From the UHGV virus genome UHGV-0138423: a DNA stretch of 42,842 nt. The stretch is one strand, 5' to 3'. The translations under genes were made by a program, and so were the position numbers. Of this stretch, positions 1,563 through 34,617 are shown piece by piece. A model generated the notes under the pieces. That model was not told where the DNA came from, did not search any database, and worked only from the letters and a program-made list of their open reading frames with translations. Every line of letters begins with the position of its first letter. Positions within the stretch are counted from its first letter, which is position 1. Source of the DNA: a virus.

Positions 1563-3986
1563 TCACTGGCCAGACAGCGATGCCAGCATGAAATAATGCA
1601 GCTCATCATTCCTTACAGACATTATTTCACCAGCCTCCCTGACCAGCTTGCGCTCTCCGGTATCGTATTCTTCCATTGTAAGGAGTCCGTCAGGACCAAG
1701 CTCCATACGAGTCCCGTAAACCACTTCATATTCTGCCGGATATTCATCACGACACAAAATACCGTAATCAAAAGCGTCCAGCCCTTCCTCAGAGAAGACC
1801 TTCTGTACGTCCTGAGCAATCACTCCTACATGCCATCTGGCTGCGTTCCCTTTGCTGGACACTGCATCCCTGAAACGGAACCGACAGATATACCCGAGCA
1901 GCTTTCTGGCAACCCTTTTTTCTGCATCCGACAGAATTGTTTCGTCCTGTTTATGAGTCCGGTCTGATGTACTGATACTTCCCGTAGCTGAATAAACCTG
2001 TGCGGGTCGCCATGAGGCATAACCGATCGAATACGTATTATCTGTATAAGGGCGGAGATTTCCTGATGAATCTATGCGCCATCTCTTTTCTCCTCCTGTG
2101 GCATTTGCATCCTGATTCGTTGCAAAATCAATCACTGTCGCTGACCTGAACACAGATGAACCACCGCCAATTACCAGCGTGTTATTCCCCTCTGATGCCT
2201 GTTGGTCAACTACCAGTATTTTATCCTGATTTTTACCTGAACCACTTTTCGAGGCAGCGATAATACGATTAAACTGATCCTCACCATCGCTCTTTTGTGC
2301 GATGGTGATAACATTGGACCAGATTGCCTCTCTTTGTCGCTGAAAACCATATTCTCCGCTGTCTGTAGTGACAGCTTTATATTTTATTCCACCTTCAGCT
2401 GACTCCTGCGTTATATAGAATGTCTGGTTATTAGCATTCTTGATGAACACATAATTGTCAGCAGGAATGTCATTTCCACTCAGATCTTTAATCGGTGTCG
2501 TGGTTGTATGCAGACAAAACCATTTCTGACTCACAGAACGCATATATGCCAGAATTTCAGACAGGGATGTGAATACCGTCCCCAACACCGGGTTTACCAA
2601 CCCCTGGGCACTACGGGGAAATGTTCCAATACTGGCATGAGACACATCAAACCCCGTGTACAACCAGGCTGCCTGACGAAAATCAATAGCATCTCTGCCA
2701 GTACTGAACTCTTTCATCAGAACAATTCCTTTCTGATAAGCCTGTGGTAACCCACGCTCCAGAAAGATATAAAGCGAATATATACTGCCGCCGTCGTCAG
2801 AAATACAAATTCCTTCGTTCTCAATGCGCGAAGGTGTAAAACCCTGCCTGGTAAGCACATCTATCATTTTTTGGGGATGAAGAATGGATTCCTGCTGCTT
2901 TACTCCATCCGGAGAAAAGACCTTAACCCCCTGAAACTGGTTAAATCCGGCTGATGCCCCGGTATTAAAATAGCCACCATAAGAACAGGCAATATAATCG
3001 TCTCCCACAGCAATTCCCTGACGTTTTGTGAAGCGTCTTGCATAGCTGTCTGTGCTTTCCGTGATATATCCGGAATCATGCAACGGTAATGTGAATGTCC
3101 CTGTCCGACGAAACTGAAAATCATACACCGCAAATACTGTGCGGGTGATCAGGCCTCCCACTTCCGGCGCTGACTGTTCAACCACCCAGCGGTTTTTACG
3201 ATAGCTGAACTGGTTGTAAACACCGACATCATGTTCATCAATTAACGGCAATACTGAACCAGAAATTGCCCCATCAAGCGAAAACTGTTTCAGTAATCCA
3301 TTTTCTCCTGACATGAACAAACGTAATCCACCGTAATCCGTTGTCACCACAAGGCCTTCGCTGACAACGCCACGACCTCCATTATCGACATAATAATATC
3401 CCTCATATTCGCCGGATGTTGTGTACTGAACTATAACGTTCCGTGTCTGCTTTGGCTCAACGGTATAACTCAGATAGATTTTTTCTCCTGTCACCACAAA
3501 TCCCTGTGGATACATATATTCCGCACCAGACTGAGCAGCCAGCACCGTATCGTAGTCCGGGAATAATAACGGCAATTCCATTAAGACACTACGGGAATGG
3601 TTAGTGTACAGATTGTTCAATGAACCAGCTTTTACATCCTGTAACCCCAGATTTTCAAGAGCGCGTTCTACCGTGCCATCCGATTTGATATCGCCAAACG
3701 GATTCTTGCGGCTCAGGTATTCAACAGCAAACCCCGATCCCAGCAATTCAACAAAACCGGGCAGATCACCATTATCAAGCACATCCCGTTGCGTTTTATC
3801 ACTTACAAACTGGGCCAGAGCTGCAGCAATAAAGCTGGCCTGCCGAATAACCTTATTGACTTGCGCACTGGATGCTTTACCTGCTGTAAATCCGGATAAA
3901 AGCGCAGGCAACGCTTCCCATTCCTCCTGCGACATAACATTGGCATTTTTACCCGTTGCGAATGCTTTAAAGTCATTTTTTGCCAT
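1563..3986 (-). CDS. Tail fiber / tailspike protein with C-terminal intramolecular chaperone (peptidase S74-like) domain
   Basis: 807 codons from the ATG at 3984-3986 (MAKNDFKAF...), overlapping the upstream stop as TGATG. C-terminal ~110 aa (..RVARKLLGYICRFRFRD...HVGVIAQDVQKVFSEEGLDAFDYGIL...) resembles the self-cleaving chaperone domain of endosialidase-type tail fibers. Last gene of the tail operon. Confidence 0.75.
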   Translation of the reverse strand: MAKNDFKAFATGKNANVMSQEEWEALPALLSGFTAGKASSAQVNKVIRQASFIAAALAQFVSDKTQRDVLDNGDLPGFVELLGSGFAVEYLSRKNPFGDIKSDGTVERALENLGLQDVKAGSLNNLYTNHSRSVLMELPLLFPDYDTVLAAQSGAEYMYPQGFVVTGEKIYLSYTVEPKQTRNVIVQYTTSGEYEGYYYVDNGGRGVVSEGLVVTTDYGGLRLFMSGENGLLKQFSLDGAISGSVLPLIDEHDVGVYNQFSYRKNRWVVEQSAPEVGGLITRTVFAVYDFQFRRTGTFTLPLHDSGYITESTDSYARRFTKRQGIAVGDDYIACSYGGYFNTGASAGFNQFQGVKVFSPDGVKQQESILHPQKMIDVLTRQGFTPSRIENEGICISDDGGSIYSLYIFLERGLPQAYQKGIVLMKEFSTGRDAIDFRQAAWLYTGFDVSHASIGTFPRSAQGLVNPVLGTVFTSLSEILAYMRSVSQKWFCLHTTTTPIKDLSGNDIPADNYVFIKNANNQTFYITQESAEGGIKYKAVTTDSGEYGFQRQREAIWSNVITIAQKSDGEDQFNRIIAASKSGSGKNQDKILVVDQQASEGNNTLVIGGGSSVFRSATVIDFATNQDANATGGEKRWRIDSSGNLRPYTDNTYSIGYASWRPAQVYSATGSISTSDRTHKQDETILSDAEKRVARKLLGYICRFRFRDAVSSKGNAARWHVGVIAQDVQKVFSEEGLDAFDYGILCRDEYPAEYEVVYGTRMELGPDGLLTMEEYDTGERKLVREAGEIMSVRNDELHYFMLASLSGQ

Positions 3987-4666
3987 CAGAGTAATACTCC
4001 CCATGCCCCTACATCAAAACCACTGATAAATTCGTTATCCATATCAAAACCAAAAAATTTTGAACCTTCCGATGGGGTTTCCACCGAAGGTGTTTCTATG
4101 CCACCCGCCCACACCCCGGCGGCTTTTACTGTGAGATATCCCTGTTTAATTACAGCAATTAACTCACGCGATACATCTGAAATATCAGTATCAGGAAAGA
4201 CCCAGACCGATATCGTCATGTCCTGGTTATCGACAATCTGCATTCGCAGCCCGGATCCTGCTGTCGCCGTGTCAAGAATTGCCGGAAGCGAATCATTCCG
4301 TCCGTCCCAGTTATTAATCGCAATCTTCGCTTTAAGGATGACACGATAAGTTTCATCGCTGAGGTACATGTATCCGGAATCAGGATCATATGGCCCCTGC
4401 CATACCCCCTGATCATATCCAAGCCCGTCGGTATCCCAGCTGAAATAGACACCTGAGATAGACTGGCTGACAACACGGCTACGTCCGATCCACAATCCCA
4501 GAATGTCAAGTTGCACACCAACCGCAGAGTCAATATCAAATGCAGTAATCAGCCCTCTGGTGGCAGCCGCAACATCAATAAGCGGCCGGGTCATCAGATC
4601 AACATGCGCAAGAAATTTAGGTTTGGTGGCGTGGTAGTTCGTGATTAGTTCGGTGTATTTGCTCAT
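3986..4666 (-). CDS. Baseplate/tail protein (gpI-like position, between baseplate J and tail fiber)
   Basis: 226-codon ORF, translationally coupled to the J-like gene; position equals P2 gpI / Mu gp48. Family assignment from synteny only. Confidence 0.5.
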   Translation of the reverse strand: MSKYTELITNYHATKPKFLAHVDLMTRPLIDVAAATRGLITAFDIDSAVGVQLDILGLWIGRSRVVSQSISGVYFSWDTDGLGYDQGVWQGPYDPDSGYMYLSDETYRVILKAKIAINNWDGRNDSLPAILDTATAGSGLRMQIVDNQDMTISVWVFPDTDISDVSRELIAVIKQGYLTVKAAGVWAGGIETPSVETPSEGSKFFGFDMDNEFISGFDVGAWGVLL

Positions 4667-27877: not shown

Positions 27878-28033
27878 TTACTCCTCAGGTTCGTAAGCTG
27901 TGAAGACAGCGACCTCCGTCTGGCCGGTTCGGAGTCGTACCTCGCAGAGGTCTTTCCTCGTTACCAGTGCCGTCACTATGACGGTTAAACAGATGACGAT
28001 CAGGGCGATTAACATCGCCTTTTGCTGCTTCAT
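27878..28033 (-). CDS. hok: Hok/Gef-family type I toxin
   Basis: 51 aa from the internal ATG: MKQQKAMLIALIVICLTVIVTALVTRKDLCEVRLRTGQTEVAVFTAYEPEE, essentially identical to E. coli HokD/RelF as I recall it. Confidence 0.8.
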   Translation of the reverse strand: MKQQKAMLIALIVICLTVIVTALVTRKDLCEVRLRTGQTEVAVFTAYEPEE

Positions 28034-28292
28034 AGCCTGCTTCTCCTTGCCTTTCGGCACGTAAGAGGCTAACCTACGTGTGTAGAGCATAGATATGGCC
28101 TCAGATTAATGTTAAGCGTCTTGCCGGACGCGTAATGTTAACTGGGGCTTTTCTCTATCTGCCTTTTGGTGTTCATGCCTGAGACAGATAGCCTCAAGCA
28201 CCCGCAGTTATTCTACTTAACTAAGATTTCCCCGCAAACCGTTTTTGTCCGGCACAGTAAATATCCAACTAAACCAATGGCGTTCGCTGTAT

Positions 28293-28472: not shown

Positions 28473-28592
28473 TATTCCCCCTACAATCAATGTGCAATAA
28501 CATTTAAACACACCTCAATTTGGCCGGACATATAAATATCTAAACCAGAAAAAATCACTTACATAGCGTTACAAACTCTTTAGTCTAAATAT

Positions 28593-29108
28593 TCATCGTA
28601 AAACATCCTCCACGCTTATCAGTCCATTTCGTTTCAGGTAATCCATCGCCTTCTCCGGTAATTTGCAGTCCGGCTGAGCTTTTTTCAGTTGACTGACCAG
28701 TCGTTTAACCCACATTGTTAATTCGCTAACCTGATTGCCGGATGCTGGTGGATTGTCGGCTTTACCCAGAATGGCAGCGCAGCAGGCCTCTCTGAGCACC
28801 CAGTCAACAGCATCCTTCCATGCTCCTGTTTCGACTGGCGGATTCTCACGCTTTACCTGTTCATAAAAGCGCACGGCTTTAACCAGTCCTTCTGATGTCA
28901 CCGGGACTGGCGGGCCGATGAATAAGGCCTGAATTTCATAGTTCGGCCTGTCGTTACAATCCTCTTTTGTCGGTACATATTTCCAGTCACCAGCCCACGG
29001 CTTCCCCTGAAAGTCTGTAACGTCTTTTTTCACGTAGCGATATCGCCATGCAACTGGTTTTGCCTGCCCTGCCGTTTCATGCCCTTCCTGATAATTAATC
29101 TCGCTCAT
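28593..29108 (-). CDS. Hypothetical protein
   Basis: 171 aa ORF, translationally coupled (ATGA) to the upstream acidic ORF; no family recognised. Confidence 0.5.
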   Translation of the reverse strand: MSEINYQEGHETAGQAKPVAWRYRYVKKDVTDFQGKPWAGDWKYVPTKEDCNDRPNYEIQALFIGPPVPVTSEGLVKAVRFYEQVKRENPPVETGAWKDAVDWVLREACCAAILGKADNPPASGNQVSELTMWVKRLVSQLKKAQPDCKLPEKAMDYLKRNGLISVEDVLR

Positions 29109-29281
29109 TCATCGCCCCACTCATCACAATATGCTTCGACCGGAGTTTTTCCTGCTTCATAATCATCACGCCATGCTTCAGCATCAGCAGCACTGCCACC
29201 ACGTAACTCTGCATAGTCCATTAACAGTTCATGCCATTCTTCAAAACTGGCGTTATATTTAGTTGAACCAAAATCAGCCAT
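29105..29281 (-). CDS. Small acidic protein
   Basis: 58 aa (MADFGSTKYNASFEEWHELLMDYAELRGG...YCDEWGDE), rich in Asp/Glu; start overlaps the stop of the upstream acidic ORF; below the ORF-track size cut-off. Confidence 0.4.
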   Translation of the reverse strand: MADFGSTKYNASFEEWHELLMDYAELRGGSAADAEAWRDDYEAGKTPVEAYCDEWGDE

Positions 29282-29456
29282 TTTGTTCTTCCTCTTCGTC
29301 TTTTATTTCGTGGTATGAGTAATTGCAGTAGTTAAAGAAAATATCTTTAGCTTCATCCTGTATTTCATCTGGTGTTGCATCATCATCCACTTCGAATTCA
29401 TCCTCGAAATCTCCACCGGCTATTCCCGTTTCAATAATTATTTTGAATTTTCGCAT
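29274..29456 (-). CDS. Small highly acidic protein
   Basis: 60 aa, about one third Asp/Glu (..DFEDEFEVDDDATPDEIQDEAKD...KDEEEEQNG); AT-rich. Confidence 0.4.
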   Translation of the reverse strand: MRKFKIIIETGIAGGDFEDEFEVDDDATPDEIQDEAKDIFFNYCNYSYHEIKDEEEEQNG

Positions 29457-29549
29457 TTCACTACCGCCCTTTCGGACGGCCTCCTGATGTTCTGAGGGTG
29501 CAGAAATCCATCCGGTTAAGGATTAAATTTTTAACAGAGCTAAATTTAA

Positions 29550-29906
29550 TTATTCAGTTCTGGATTTTGTCGCCCTGCGTATCCGCGCTTTCGCGTTACG
29601 CTCAATCTGAATTAGCTTTTCTATATTTTTTCGCCTTTCCCGCTCCTCCTGACGCAAGAGCCTTACATCATCTGCCAGTCTGGTTTCTCTTTTCGCCACA
29701 GAGAGCATCCAGTCAAATGGCTCCACAACTGCACCGCAGATTTTACAGCGGACCTGACGCTCTTTTTCGTCAACCCGGACAGAGGCGTGATGACAATATG
29801 GTCTTTCCGATGGCTCATAAAGAAAATTAACCTGATTACGAGGGTCATCCTCTTTTACCGGAAATAAAACGATATTGCTTAACTCATCCTCTGGTTTTAT
29901 TTCCAT
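29550..29906 (-). CDS. Zinc-ribbon-containing hypothetical protein
   Basis: 118 aa with CHH...CKIC metal-binding arrangement and a basic C-terminal helix. Confidence 0.45.
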   Translation of the reverse strand: MEIKPEDELSNIVLFPVKEDDPRNQVNFLYEPSERPYCHHASVRVDEKERQVRCKICGAVVEPFDWMLSVAKRETRLADDVRLLRQEERERRKNIEKLIQIERNAKARIRRATKSRTE

Positions 29907-30345
29907 GCTCCTCTCCTTTGATGCGAATGCCAGCGACGCGTAATGCGTGTTCTAGGTCAATCAGGTAAAGCCAACTGCCATTTTCTTTAGGTATCATGAC
30001 ATGTCGCTCATCTGCATTTATCGGGTGTCCATATCGAAGGTCGTAGCGAGTCGGTAATTGAACTTCCCGCGCTTCCAGTTCAGCAATACGCTTGCTCCCA
30101 TCAGAGATAACGCCTTCGTAATACTCACGCTGCTCGTTGAGTTGTGATTTTGCTTCTTCCAGTCCATCCAGCAAATCAGCGATAATATCCGCTTCCCGAT
30201 GACGGATGTGACGCTTAAACGCAGCAAGAGCCGCATCACAATCCCGTTCAGCATTTGGGCTGTCCGGGATAGCCTGATACCACGCCAGCGTCGACTGATA
30301 GTTTTGTGCTGCCTCACGAAGCGCCTCATAGTTAACCTCTCTCAT
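29884..30345 (-). CDS. Hypothetical protein
   Basis: 153 aa ORF overlapping neighbours by a few codons; no family recognised. Confidence 0.45.
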   Translation of the reverse strand: MREVNYEALREAAQNYQSTLAWYQAIPDSPNAERDCDAALAAFKRHIRHREADIIADLLDGLEEAKSQLNEQREYYEGVISDGSKRIAELEAREVQLPTRYDLRYGHPINADERHVMIPKENGSWLYLIDLEHALRVAGIRIKGEEHGNKTRG

Positions 30346-30638
30346 TGAGCCACCTCCTGATAAATCACTGCATGCCCCAGTTTCTCCGCCAGTGCCAGCT
30401 CTGCCTTAGCGCCCGCTGACCGCTGCCAGCCATTCAGCATGTAAATCGCATCCACACAACGAATCATTGCCATGCAAATATCCATGTAGTGCGGCTGTGT
30501 CAGCCCGTCCGGAAGTACTGCCGGGTTTAAGACGGTATGCCCTTCCCGTTTCAGTTCCTCTTCCGCCTTGTGAAACGCCTCACGGTTGAAATTTTCATAT
30601 CCCGTCATTGGACCGGCAATATAAACTCTGACCCTCAC
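30342..30638 (-). CDS. DUF4406 / nucleoside 2-deoxyribosyltransferase-like protein
   Basis: Core ..VYIAGPMTGYENFN..AF...L...GHTVLNPA...........CM.MI..CDAIYMLNGWQRSAGAKAE..LA..LG fits the DUF4406 signature; probable GTG start at 30638 overlapping the upstream stop (GTGA). Confidence 0.55.
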   Translation of the reverse strand: MRVRVYIAGPMTGYENFNREAFHKAEEELKREGHTVLNPAVLPDGLTQPHYMDICMAMIRCVDAIYMLNGWQRSAGAKAELALAEKLGHAVIYQEVAQ

Positions 30639-31042
30639 TCCATCACCTCCTGAAAGTTTCCCCGATAGAACGCCAGCACACGCTGCATAACTTCGCTCTG
30701 GCGGCACTCACGACAAATTATGTTCTGCCGTCTGTTGTAACGACGTATTTCTCCGTCAGGTAACTTTCGAATCAGTGTCGGGTCAGCAGCCTTCTCCGGT
30801 GTCTTACGCCATACGCGATACGCCTGCTCTGATGGAAATACCCCGCAACCAGAGAGCCAGACATCACCACTGGCCGCAAGCGCACCAGATAAACGACGAA
30901 TAGCGGTCTTACTGACACCCGTTTTATCTGCCAGTTGTCGAAAAGTTTCTCGTCCGCTCAGGCGCACGAATTCCACAATACGCGCCTTCACTTCTTCCCG
31001 CTCTTCTGGTGTAAATACTTTTGCCATAAGCGCCTCCGGCAA
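30635..31042 (-). CDS. Hypothetical protein with HTH and CxxC motifs
   Basis: 135 aa; ..TFRQLADKTGVSKTAIRRLSG.. HTH-like segment and ..CRECRQ.. Confidence 0.45.
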   Translation of the reverse strand: MPEALMAKVFTPEEREEVKARIVEFVRLSGRETFRQLADKTGVSKTAIRRLSGALAASGDVWLSGCGVFPSEQAYRVWRKTPEKAADPTLIRKLPDGEIRRYNRRQNIICRECRQSEVMQRVLAFYRGNFQEVME

Positions 31043-31855
31043 TCACTTTTCCGATACAACACGGCGGGAAGAATCAGTAATCTGTCGAACAATATCCCGG
31101 TGCTTGTTCAGCTCCCGCAGCGCGGCGCAGACTCGCTCCCACTTCTGAACATCACTTTTCGCCCTGCGCAGCGCCAGGTTTGCCCTGCGAAGGGACGGAA
31201 AAATCAGCTCATCTGCTTGCGTTTCGGTAAACGATGGCAACGGCTGCACAATGTCCGCCACAGTTTCTGTTTTAATTTCTTCCTGTGTTGCGGCTTCCCG
31301 GACTGGTAACGCAGCACCTGCTGGCTGAGGAAAGGCCTTACCATCACTTTCCGTTACCAGCGCGGCTTTCGGCTCTGCTGGTAAATTATCGCCCGGCATG
31401 CAGTAACGAAATTTACCGTTCTGATTAACGCGTGCCAGCCGCCCCTTGCTGATTGCCATTGCCAGCGTTGAAGCTACTTTGCGTGATGTGGTACCGAACA
31501 ACGCAGCCAGCTCATCCGCCGTTTGTGGTCCGCGTTGTTCAATCGTCGCGGTTAAATCGCACTCTGAGATTTTCGCTACTGTTGCCGTGGTAGTTTCTTC
31601 CGGCTGTTCTTCCGGCGCTGGCTGTTCCTGCTGAACGTTGTTATCAGCCACACGCCAGGTGTACGCGCTTTTATCAACGAAACCAGCTTTTTTCAGTTCC
31701 CATAGTTCGTTCAGCACTTCTTCACGACTGATATCAAGTCGCGCAGCAAGTTCTATGGATGTGGCTTTTCCCATTGCTTTCAGTGCGTCAAAAACAGTCT
31801 CCATTAAATTTTTCTCCCGGTAAAAATTACTTCGCAATTCCTGGCTGGACGACAT
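31043..31855 (-). CDS. Hypothetical protein with two winged-helix-like segments (YdaW position)
   Basis: 270 aa with acidic Pro/Glu-rich linker; occupies the position following the DnaC-like gene as in Rac; likely true start at the internal METVFDAL. Confidence 0.45.
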
Positions 31856-32573
31856 TCGTACGCCAGCTCTCCCAGTTAAAATTCACCCAGCGTCCGCCGT
31901 TCATGGTCATGCGATCCATAATCCGCTCGCCGAGCAATGTTTTCATGGCCTCATAGTTCAGGTTTGTCAGCATTCCCACGCTGCGCATCGACGCTGTCCG
32001 GCGATCAACAATCTGGTGCAGTACCACCTGCTCGTTTTTCGTCTCGCGCTGAATGCCAATTTCATCAAGAACCAGCAGATCCACTTCGCACAGTTCCCGC
32101 AAAAATTTTTCGCCTGACTGCCCGTCGTCATAGCTGGCATGCAGGACACTCATAACATCAGCCACGGTAACCACAATCACTGTCTGACCGTCTTTCAGCA
32201 GGCGATTCCCGATAGCTGCCGCTAAATGGTTCTTCCCGGTACCAGGTTTTCCGCTGAACGCAAAATTTGTACACCCGGTCATCAGTTCATCGGCGATGGA
32301 TTTCGCCTGGCTTAACGCGTATCGCTGGCCGTCGTTCTGCACCTGGTAATTCGCAAATGAACATTTGCGGTGCAACGGCTGGATGCCAGAGCGATTCAGG
32401 ATTTTTTTCACCCGCAACTGACGATTCAGGCGGTTGATCTCCTCGCAACGTTTCTGGCCTTCAGCAAGTTGCCACTCGCGCCACTCCGCAACCGTTCTGA
32501 ATGGGGCGGTTACATGTGGTGGGGTCAGTCTGCGGATACGCTCCAGAACGCCTCCTGTCGCAATATTTTTCAT
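31827..32573 (-). CDS. DnaC-like helicase loader (replication protein)
   Basis: 248 aa with Walker A (..[17 protein letters not shown]..) and Walker B (..DLLVLDEIG..) of the DnaC/IstB ATPase family. Confidence 0.8.
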
Positions 32574-32579
32574 GGTCTG

Positions 32580-33362
32580 TTACCCCCTGAAGCCTGGCGG
32601 GATCGCACTGTCCGGCAACGAGACGGTGTTAACCTGTCGGAGCAACGTCTCAGGCCGAACACCTTTCGGCGCGAACAGGCCCTGGTATTCATTGGCGATG
32701 CTGTGTCGAATCACCTGCTCAGGTGTAAACCCCTGCTGACGGAATTTTTCCAGTTCCCGTATCGCCCCGTTAGCGCCCTGCTCCGTTCGAATCGGTTTTC
32801 GCAATGCCTGTCTGAACCGGACCCACTCATGCCAGAGTGTTTCCGGCAACCAATCGGGCAGCTCAATAGCCTCCGGCTCGAACTTTTTAGACGCTCGTTT
32901 TTGCCGAGGGGGATTTAGGGGGAGATCAGTATTTATATCTTCCTCTTCCTCTGGTAACGCTTTTTGATCCGTTTGTGTAACGCTGTCAGCGTTACCTTTT
33001 CGTTTCAGTTCGCGTATTTTTGTTACTCGCTCGTTTGTAACCGCCCGTTTTTTAGAGCTTTTTCCGTTATGACGTTCAAAGTTAGGTAGAGAAAGCCCAC
33101 CGTCATTTTCGACCAGCCATCCAACCTGAATTAACGCATCAGCAAAACCAGCCATAAAAGTAATGCGATCTATTGCACTTTTTGTAACGCCGCGAGCGTT
33201 ACAATCTGCGTTACCGTCTATCATTTGTTGATCCGCCCATGCCCAGAAGCGAATAACCTTCCCTAATGCGGCATCTGGATCAATATTCAGAATCTCAGCA
33301 AGCCTGAATATTTCCGGCTTATCCGGCGTAATAACCTCGAGCTTTATCCAGTTTGAAGCCAT
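32580..33362 (-). CDS. Replication initiation protein (O-like / YdaU-like)
   Basis: 260 aa gene immediately upstream of the DnaC-like gene in the replication module. Confidence 0.5.
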   Translation of the reverse strand: MASNWIKLEVITPDKPEIFRLAEILNIDPDAALGKVIRFWAWADQQMIDGNADCNARGVTKSAIDRITFMAGFADALIQVGWLVENDGGLSLPNFERHNGKSSKKRAVTNERVTKIRELKRKGNADSVTQTDQKALPEEEEDINTDLPLNPPRQKRASKKFEPEAIELPDWLPETLWHEWVRFRQALRKPIRTEQGANGAIRELEKFRQQGFTPEQVIRHSIANEYQGLFAPKGVRPETLLRQVNTVSLPDSAIPPGFRG

Positions 33363-33439
33363 TTGTTTTCACCTTGTAACGCTCGCAGCGTTACATTTAA
33401 CTGATACCGAACAAAACAGTCCGGCACGATTAATTTCAA

Positions 33440-33862
33440 TCAATGCACTACGACAGAATCGCCGGGCGATCCTCCGCCGCTGAAATGTGCTTTCCGGTAA
33501 ACGGCCTGGACTGCATCATCATGCGCATCAATTGCCGTACTCAACGCTTCCTGCGCCGCCAGTAATGCACGGCGTTCCAGGGTATCGAAGATGCAGAGTC
33601 GGTGACGCAGCTCGCGCGGAAGAATTGCCAGAACCGCAGGGATCAGTTTCTGAATTTTTTCCCTTTGCGCTTTCGTTTCACCTTTCAACCAACGGTGATA
33701 GATATTCTGCTGATTGTTCCAGTCCTTGCCTGGTACCAGGGGCAATTCGCCGCCCCCCTGGCGCAGATATTCTTCAGTAATTGCGTTAGCGACCCACGCC
33801 TGCCCTTTTTCGGCTGCCAGGGCTAACAACACTGATTCGATGTGCTCATGCCTGATTTTCAT
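33440..33862 (-). CDS. ydaT: YdaT-like protein (cII-position, Rac toxin-module homolog)
   Basis: 140 aa translationally coupled to the Cro-like ydaS homolog; synteny racR / ydaS-ydaT as in Rac. Confidence 0.6.
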   Translation of the reverse strand: MKIRHEHIESVLLALAAEKGQAWVANAITEEYLRQGGGELPLVPGKDWNNQQNIYHRWLKGETKAQREKIQKLIPAVLAILPRELRHRLCIFDTLERRALLAAQEALSTAIDAHDDAVQAVYRKAHFSGGGSPGDSVVVH

Positions 33863-34101
33863 GAATCAACCGCTCCTATGCTGTTTTCGCTATGCTTACC
33901 GTCTGGGGGGAATACATCGTCAAGTCCACAATGAGCGCCAAGCCGATTAAGGGTAGAAACAATTTTTCTGCACTCCTCTAGCCCAGGGGTACGAAAATTT
34001 GCTTCGTAATTTGCCAGTCGGCTTTGTATCCACCCTAACTGAACAGCAAGTTGTCTTTGAGACAGCCCAAGCTGTTTTCGATATGTTGAAATTTTGTTCA
34101 T
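33859..34101 (-). CDS. ydaS: Cro-like HTH regulator (YdaS-like)
   Basis: 80 aa with XRE-type HTH (..LGLSQRQLAVQLGWIQSRLANYE..), divergent from the repressor gene. Confidence 0.7.
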   Translation of the reverse strand: MNKISTYRKQLGLSQRQLAVQLGWIQSRLANYEANFRTPGLEECRKIVSTLNRLGAHCGLDDVFPPDGKHSENSIGAVDS

Positions 34102-34125
34102 TGAAAACCTCCGATGACAATTTTA

Positions 34126-34186
34126 AACACATCTTGTGTTATATGGTCAAGCTGTTTTGTGTTTTATGTAAATCACGATTCGTGAT
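34126..34186. promoter_or_regulatory. Divergent promoter/operator region between ydaS-like and racR-like genes
   Basis: Palindromes AACAC-ATCTT-GTGTT (34126-34140) and ATCACGA-T-TCGTGAT (34172-34186) within the 96 bp intergenic region. Confidence 0.45.
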
Positions 34187-34197
34187 ACAAGGATGCA

Positions 34198-34617
34198 ATG
34201 GAAAAAGAAAACGAAAAAATTGCCGCTAGTAGGCTCAATGACAAAATTGCAATGCGTCTTAAAGAGCGCAGGCAGAAGCTTGGTTTATCTCAAGGAAAAC
34301 TTGCTGAAATCTGCGGATGGACGCAATCGCGTATAGGTAACTATGAGGCGGGCAGCAGAAATGTTGGAGTGCATGACGCTGTCGTATTGGGAAAGGCACT
34401 TGGCATATCTCCTCCTGAGCTCCTCTTTGGAGAACAGGAATCTTCTGAATTGTGGTTAAATGAATCCCAACGAAAACTTCTTGAGTTGTTTAACCAGCTA
34501 CCGGGCTCAGAACAACAACGAATGATTGAGCTATTTGAAGTCCGGCTAAAAGAAATCGATGAGTATGTAGAAAAATATTTGAGAGGCAGGCTTAAAGATA
34601 ATCCCCCACCGGAGTAA
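34198..34617 (+). CDS. racR: Prophage repressor (RacR-like, cI-position)
   Basis: 139 aa with N-terminal XRE-type HTH (..LGLSQGKLAEICGWTQSRIGNYE..) and a C-terminal helical domain; divergent from the Cro-like gene. Confidence 0.75.
   Translation: MEKENEKIAASRLNDKIAMRLKERRQKLGLSQGKLAEICGWTQSRIGNYEAGSRNVGVHDAVVLGKALGISPPELLFGEQESSELWLNESQRKLLELFNQLPGSEQQRMIELFEVRLKEIDEYVEKYLRGRLKDNPPPE

Follow-up and report, generated by a model that had tools for sequence, protein, structure and literature searches.

A DUF4406 protein of a Rac-like lambdoid prophage as a candidate deoxynucleoside monophosphate N-glycosidase

A flavodoxin-like alpha/beta fold is common to the solved members of three groups of enzymes, the nucleoside 2'-deoxyribosyltransferases (NDTs), DNPH1 and MilB. 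In DNPH1, also called Rcl (PDB 2khz, 4fyh and 8qhq), the catalytic triad is Y24, D80 and E104, and S98 together with S128' holds the phosphate; MilB keeps the phosphate-coordinating Ser as S97, and Phe17 versus Tyr24 sets the preference for ribo or deoxy substrates (PMC10603095). A hydrogen bond between the Tyr and the Glu confers 2'-deoxy specificity, and the TIR domains that cleave nicotinamide adenine dinucleotide (NAD) have Phe or Ala in place of the Tyr (PMC11204291). In the hydrolases of the superfamily small uncharged residues replace the Asp or Asn that binds the 5'-OH in NDTs, and one NDT-family member, DmtZ of Z-genome phages, is a deoxyadenosine monophosphate (dAMP) hydrolase and deoxyribose-5-phosphate transferase that occurs beside a dATP/dGTP hydrolase or as a fusion with one (PMC12884076). 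Here we compare with these enzymes a protein of the family DUF4406 (PF14359), encoded on the minus strand at 30342-30638 of the virus genome UHGV-0138423, whose whole analyzed stretch of 42,842 nucleotides we call the window. We give about an even chance to the reading that this protein is an N-glycosidase of 2'-deoxynucleoside 5'-monophosphates (dNMPs) that works through a covalent intermediate on Glu80 and is expressed early in lytic growth.

The open reading frame (ORF) at 30342-30638 encodes 98 residues, from a GTG start at 30638 to a TGA stop (MRVRVYIAGPMTGYENFNREAFHKAEEELKREGHTVLNPAVLPDGLTQPHYMDICMAMIRCVDAIYMLNGWQRSAGAKAELALAEKLGHAVIYQEVAQ), and the coding sequence in RefSeq has the same length of 297 nt. 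The GTG (30638-30636) overlaps the TGA of the upstream gene (30637-30635) in the sequence GTGA, and the TGA of the DUF4406 gene in turn shares the sequence ATGA (30345-30342) with the ATG of the gene that follows. The ribosome-binding site ahead of the GTG is strong: a Shine-Dalgarno sequence AGGAGG, read from the sequence on the minus strand at 30646-30651, sits 7 nt 5' of the start within the 3' end of the upstream gene. The GTG start is favored over a longer ORF of 121 residues by the homologs, which begin with MK(I/V)YIAGP. The protein matches the Pfam profile of DUF4406 over positions 2-91 of 91 with 129.7 bits (E=5.7e-38), the curated gathering cutoff being 22 bits, and it matches PHROG 355, 'nucleoside 2-deoxyribosyltransferase', at E=3e-48. 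The family-invariant residues G9, F22, S74, G76, A77 and E80 and the NPA and GW motifs are all present. An earlier note on this DNA, which had proposed a protein of ~98 residues with these signature motifs and a place in DUF4406, is borne out on both points. NCBIfam gave no match for the protein.

DUF4406 is a widespread family. An exhaustive HMMER scan of representatives of clusters at 50% identity found 12,253 matches at E<=1e-3 and 1,929 at E<=1e-10, and a relative is present in 673 of 50,697 phage genome records, mostly those of Mycobacterium, Arthrobacter, Gordonia, Vibrio and Pseudomonas phages. Across 42 distinct alleles of the gene the ratio of nonsynonymous to synonymous substitution rates (dN/dS) has a median of 0.076 at a median dS of 0.36, and the gene is under strong purifying selection; the 12,253 matches and this ratio together place it far beyond chance. 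The labels that the phage proteins carry range over 'nucleoside deoxyribosyltransferase', 'hydrolase', 'MazG-like', 'deoxycytidylate deaminase' and 'hypothetical'. Three of these labels were followed as possible fusions and set aside: the 'MazG-like' protein of Pseudomonas phage Orisa01 and the 'deoxycytidylate deaminase' of Arthrobacter phage Abidatro are mislabeled stand-alone DUF4406 proteins, and Elezi gp29, labeled 'MazG-like', contains DUF4406 only. The gene of the window already has an annotation in public databases, and in this window it is in no way unusual. Its product is identical to a RefSeq protein, and the gene is found in about one in five complete E. coli genomes, so that in this window the finding adds little.

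The fold of the protein is predicted with good scores. An AlphaFold2 model (predicted local distance difference test score, pLDDT, 90.9; predicted template modeling score, pTM, 0.85) has the order strand-helix-strand-helix-strand-helix-strand, and on this model the protein is a minimal, four-strand version of the fold of the NDTs, DNPH1 and MilB that retains the flavodoxin-like arrangement of the solved members. The best Foldseek match is the NDT of Trypanosoma brucei (TbNDT; E=2.4e-5, TM score 0.74), followed by the NDTs of Leishmania and Chroococcidiopsis, DNPH1 (E=1.3e-3), MilB, BcmB and the entry 1t1j. Searches and model thus agree with the NDT-like fold that the earlier note had suggested. 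We found no PDB entry that belongs to DUF4406 by sequence. Searches of the PDB with the single sequence or a narrow profile returned spurious matches only and a more diverse profile was needed; one built from 30 diverse members matched TbNDT (E=3.4e-4), BlsM (0.016) and then BcmB, Leishmania NDT, MilB and 1t1j, each collinearly over nearly the full length. The last of these, a hypothetical protein of P. aeruginosa from the family DUF1937, is 18% identical and its match lies below the Pfam cutoff. Human DNPH1, whose sequence was verified against the PDB entries beforehand, gave a collinear hhalign alignment of 88 columns (E=0.012); the identity is ~20%, the core of DNPH1 has ~145 residues compared to 98 in the DUF4406 protein, and the hhalign probability from the single sequence is low.

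These alignments place the predicted catalytic residues, nucleophile E80, Y6, the phosphate-site S74 and the GPMTG loop of residues 9-13, on known ones. In a set of 144 DUF4406 members made non-redundant at 70% identity, on which conservation was measured throughout, G9, F22, S74 and E80 are invariant, and G13, P39 (98%), P43, Y51, L68, G76, A77 and A84 are conserved in at least 95%. E80 aligns with the catalytic Glu of TbNDT, BlsM, BcmB, MilB and DNPH1 (motifs 'GTAFEVG', 'GTHVEIG' and 'GVGYELG'), and like that Glu it opens the helix that follows strand 3; it is present in 144 of 144 members. Y6 aligns with the Tyr of 'KIYIAGP' in TbNDT and with Y24 of DNPH1; 143 of the sequences are not gapped in this column, and of these 127 carry Tyr and 16 Phe (88% and 11%). 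S74, six residues before the Glu, aligns with S98 of DNPH1 and with the Ser of 'PSPG' in MilB, BlsM and BcmB, all of which have Ser at that distance ('PSPGTHVE', 'QPSLGVGYE'), compared to Asp ('EPDCGTAFE') in the nucleoside transferases TbNDT and Leishmania NDT. The pattern of Tyr, Ser and Glu therefore predicts a 2'-deoxynucleoside 5'-monophosphate as the substrate. The enzymes MilB, BlsM and BcmB (4ohr, 5vto and 4jen), which are N-glycosidases of cytidine monophosphate (CMP) and hydroxymethyl-CMP with ~160 residues and come from antibiotic biosynthesis clusters, not phages, differ in having the ribo-specific Phe where DUF4406 has Tyr, and in reaching the phosphate via Arg23 where DUF4406 has Thr or Ser at the matching offset. 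The Phe found in place of Tyr6 in 11% of members may mark ribo-specific subgroups.

The usual phage annotation implies instead a genuine NDT that swaps bases between deoxynucleosides for salvage, which we regard as unlikely. The closest solved relatives by both profile and Foldseek are indeed trypanosomatid NDTs, and the NDTs (PF05014, EC 2.4.2.6; T. brucei 2a0k, Leishmania 6qai, L. leichmannii 1f8x) have in common with DUF4406 the K-I-Y-I-A-G-P start, the catalytic Glu and a Pro after strand 2, P39 here, which is described as typical of transferases (PMC12884076). However, the 5'-OH-binding Asp that NDTs carry six residues before the Glu is an invariant Ser in DUF4406, as it is in nucleotide hydrolases. 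The C-terminal third of NDTs, which completes the base pocket from the neighboring subunit, is also absent from the protein, as is their general-acid Asp or Asn. Relatives such as phiKO2 gp58 do reach PF05014 at E=8.4e-5, yet the scores of DUF4406 relatives, 16-24 bits, stay under its 28.8-bit cutoff, which none of the DUF4406 proteins tested exceeded, and the window protein itself has no PF05014 match at E<=0.01. Furthermore, the fusion and neighbor links of the family described below are to NTP pyrophosphatases, the products of which are nucleotides rather than nucleosides. On these sequence comparisons a DNPH1-like dNMP N-glycosidase appears more likely than a nucleoside transferase.

A second alternative is that the protein acts, in the manner of TIR or SLOG proteins, on NAD+-derived or ribonucleotide immune molecules, either hydrolyzing them or serving as a sponge for, for example, isomers of cyclic ADP-ribose, and so works in counter-defense. 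We think this improbable. A Tyr6 hydrogen-bonded to the Glu is a hallmark of 2'-deoxy substrates, and TIR domains with NADase activity carry Phe or Ala instead (PMC11204291). NDT, DNPH1 and MilB outscore TIR domains in both structure searches, the invariant Glu favors catalysis over sponging, and the PADLOC-DB defense models gave no match for the protein at E<=0.01.

The gene belongs to the early-right (pR-type) operon of the prophage, translationally coupled between those for the DUF977 and the Ead/Ea22-like proteins. As a dNMP N-glycosidase, the protein would bind a dNMP with the 5'-phosphate held by Ser74 and the loop Gly9-Pro-Met-Thr-Gly13, and Glu80 would attack C1' to form a covalent ester of deoxyribosyl-5-phosphate with the enzyme. 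Tyr6 would hydrogen-bond to the Glu and exclude a 2'-OH, and water would then release deoxyribose 5-phosphate and the free base. During lytic growth the enzyme could in this way remove particular dNMPs, themselves the products of NTP pyrophosphatases or nucleases, and its purpose would be to sanitize or to reshape the pool, possibly as counter-defense.

The support for hydrolysis of dNMPs is indirect and comes from three independent links in other phages, one a fusion and two of neighboring genes. The 241-residue gp162 of mycobacteriophage Wanda (locus L168, 1489-2214) joins DUF4406 at residues 7-111 to an all-alpha, PRA-PH/MazG-like NTP pyrophosphohydrolase domain at 146-189, and Thibault gp147 and NihilNomen gp166 bear the same annotation. 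This type of fusion fits the fact that the window protein weakly matches PHROG 12019, 'MazG-like pyrophosphatase', and it suggests two successive steps, from dNTP to dNMP and from there to the free base. A gene for a dATP/dGTP diphosphohydrolase (PF18909) overlaps the DUF4406 gene by 4-16 nt in two viral lineages that are unrelated to each other, at its 3' end in one (L135-L137, ~3501-4177) and, with the order reversed, at its 5' end in the other (L162-L164, ~3115-3878). The product of a pyrophosphatase is a (d)NMP, the same as the substrate predicted from the residues of DUF4406. Both arrangements parallel the pairing or fusion of DmtZ with a dNTP hydrolase, and DmtZ further resembles DUF4406 in being phage-encoded, in belonging to the NDT superfamily, in its Tyr/Glu pair and in its small uncharged residues at the 5'-phosphate site. 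It differs in having ~145 residues, five strands and Asn77 at the position of the acid, and it serves the synthesis of 2-aminoadenine DNA, of which this prophage shows no sign. Among 46 long close representatives (160-358 residues) no recurrent fusion partner was found; the extra length seems to come from miscalled starts or from unrelated small domains, and the 150-residue N-terminal half of Mufasa gp55, for example, has no Pfam domain and is of low complexity in appearance.

Several observations weigh against a dNMP N-glycosidase. The PRA-PH match in Wanda gp162 is marginal, with 21.5 bits against a cutoff of 21.3, and in this prophage no partner pyrophosphatase gene adjoins DUF4406, while the neighbors of its close relatives are interchangeable. 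The top single PDB matches by sequence and by Foldseek are to a nucleoside transferase, TbNDT, and not to hydrolases. The chain stops at residue 98, directly behind strand 4, and so is without the C-terminal elements of NDTs and the helical extension that gives DNPH1 its second phosphate ligand S128'; the hhalign alignment stops at position 98 of the DNPH1 construct (native residue 117), before this extension, and the E55/H56 helical element and the shielding loop of DNPH1 are missing as well. The conserved catalytic residues that the earlier note expected are present as far as E80, Y6 and S74 go, but the general-acid Asp is not where it should be. D80 of DNPH1 and the Asn of TbNDT, which lie in the helix before strand 3, align to M56, or to C55 if one counts from strand 3, so that D80 has no equivalent in DUF4406. 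Finally, we found no functional study, biochemical or genetic, of any DUF4406 protein in the searchable literature. The missing acid and C-terminal elements point to a stripped-down, possibly mechanistically distinct version of the enzyme; without the acid the enzyme may use another chemistry, or its leaving group may not require protonation.

The nearby Asp53 of the 'YMDIC' motif was considered as the catalytic Asp and ruled out, since it is Asp in only 69 of the 144 members (48%) and both alignments place the acid at C55/M56; by periodicity it lies on the opposite face of the helix. At the general-acid position itself DUF4406 proteins have Cys (67%) or a hydrophobic residue, and Asp occurs at position 55 in ~12%.

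Were the residue pattern and the pyrophosphatase links to mean what they suggest, namely a route from dNTP to dNMP to base and deoxyribose 5-phosphate, the widespread label 'nucleoside deoxyribosyltransferase' in phage genomes would have to be corrected, and a second step would be added to the MazG-type 'house-cleaning' pathways of phages, which might bear on nucleotide-based immunity. A more far-reaching version holds that DUF4406 is a widespread early counter-defense or pool-editing enzyme, a minimal, 'acid-less' N-glycosidase that destroys one specific deoxynucleotide, and we consider it very unlikely. By analogy with the phosphatase Dmp of phage T5, whose depletion of dAMP blocks Kongming signaling and makes such a counter-defense role possible, removal of dAMP or dIMP could blunt signaling by deoxyinosine triphosphate (Kongming-type), where Dmp acts by dephosphorylation. 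Lambdoid phages, however, are not known to encode the dNMP kinase by which Kongming is triggered. Another candidate target would be modified dNMPs set free from methylated DNA, and this would account for the recurrent overlaps with C5 cytosine methylase genes.

These overlaps are single observations, made locus by locus. Genes for C5 cytosine DNA methylases abut or overlap DUF4406 at L017 (4001-5103), L102 (1013-2454) and L108 (2406-3779), and one lies a single gene away in L145 and L146; the loci with a methylase beside DUF4406 include unrelated phages, P2-like ones among them. A further cytosine methylase, annotated by the depositors as gp46 of Acidovorax phage Alfacinha3 (L170, 835-3002), was set aside when Pfam gave no confirmation. 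Separately, a gene for an Rv2179c-like 3'-5' exonuclease (PF16473) lies immediately downstream of DUF4406 in an Edwardsiella prophage (L009, 5001-5901) and two genes upstream of it in a Citrobacter prophage (L017, 2055-4321). An exonuclease beside DUF4406 would supply (d)NMPs.

The window as a whole corresponds to a lambdoid prophage of E. coli that resembles Rac. It encodes an integrase, a RecE-type exonuclease VIII, RecT, a helix-turn-helix (HTH) repressor and YdaT, as well as an unassigned replication-initiator-like ORF and a DnaC/IstB-like loader. Around the gene of interest the order is DUF1627 (LygF), DUF977 (YdaW), DUF4406, Ead/Ea22-like, a Zn-ribbon-like ORF and DUF7167, with a Q-type antiterminator further on. 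A simple scan of 28500-34300 found a sole minus-strand promoter match, a sigma-70-like, pR-like site at 34120-34091 upstream of the ydaS/ydaT-type genes, and no promoter-like or terminator-like site flanking DUF4406 on the minus strand. This agrees with the early-right position that had been proposed for the gene, and the proposed GTGA coupling to an HTH/CxxC protein corresponds to the GTG/TGA overlap with the DUF977 gene (30635-31027, minus strand; 130 residues, Pfam E=2.1e-41), whose product has weak HTH matches and a CRECRQ motif. The Zn-ribbon protein said to follow DUF4406 is in fact the second gene downstream. The first is the Ead/Ea22-like gene (29884-30345, minus strand; 153 residues, Pfam E=6.3e-12), and the Zn-ribbon-like ORF (29550-29906, minus strand; 118 residues, PHROG 1621) overlaps its 3' end by 23 nt.

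The DUF977 gene belongs to PHROG 142, which is labeled 'Ren-like exclusion protein', and this label brings in the possibility that DUF4406 is a host-protection or exclusion factor of the prophage that depletes nucleotides against superinfecting phages or acts jointly with the DUF977 protein. Nucleotide-depleting, NDT-like effectors do exist in defense systems, and E. coli prophages very often carry the gene; however, the family is also frequent outside lambdoid prophages, in Arthrobacter, Gordonia and Vibrio phages, and PADLOC has no match. Lacking a promoter of its own in a repressor-controlled early-right operon, the gene should be silent in a lysogen, and the partnership with DUF977 is not conserved. 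We regard an exclusion role as scarcely probable.

The neighborhood of the gene was surveyed in 74 close relatives in viral contigs with E. coli-type loci, in 73 of which an ORF was called upstream. In 49 of these 73 that ORF is DUF977, and in the other 24 it encodes an unrelated HTH-like protein of ~91 residues; downstream an Ead/Ea22-like gene follows in 42, with various others in the remainder. DUF977 as an obligate partner of DUF4406 is therefore ruled out, one third of the close loci having another gene upstream; DUF977 and the ~91-residue protein (e.g. L042, 3600-4004) appear as alternative cassettes at the same position. Because the neighbors are interchangeable, the overlapping codons are to be read as ordinary operon packing and do not show that the genes are fixed partners. 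Three different replication modules are found joined to the DUF977-DUF4406 pair in Salmonella and E. coli. In the Edwardsiella prophage the DUF4406 gene is located in the early-left 'ea' region, and in a P2-like prophage of Citrobacter it is flanked by two DNA methylase genes and placed upstream of gpA. The DUF4406 gene is a functional, mobile cassette. Many E. coli chromosomes match a 601-bp query, made up of the gene with flanking sequence on either side, at 100% identity, among them that of E. coli 042, where the copy lies in a prophage adjoining ompW (RefSeq WP_001266130.1, 'DUF4406 domain-containing protein'), and the gene is present in 1,202 of 5,426 complete E. coli genomes (~22%), with up to four copies per genome.

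Some minor features of the surrounding genes may be recorded. The Ead/Ea22-like protein (29884-30345) has a weak match to the N-terminal domain of MucB/RseB, and some RefSeq records give the protein a name to that effect. Two further minus-strand ORFs of the early operon, at 28593-29108 (171 residues) and 29105-29281 (58 residues), have no Pfam match at E<=0.01. The minus-strand ORF at 27878-28090, which contains MKQQKAMLIALIVICLTVIVTALVTRKDLCEVRLRTGQTEVAVFTAYEPEE, resembles a type I toxin of the Hok/Gef type, and in the prophage of E. coli 042 hokD is annotated at the equivalent place.

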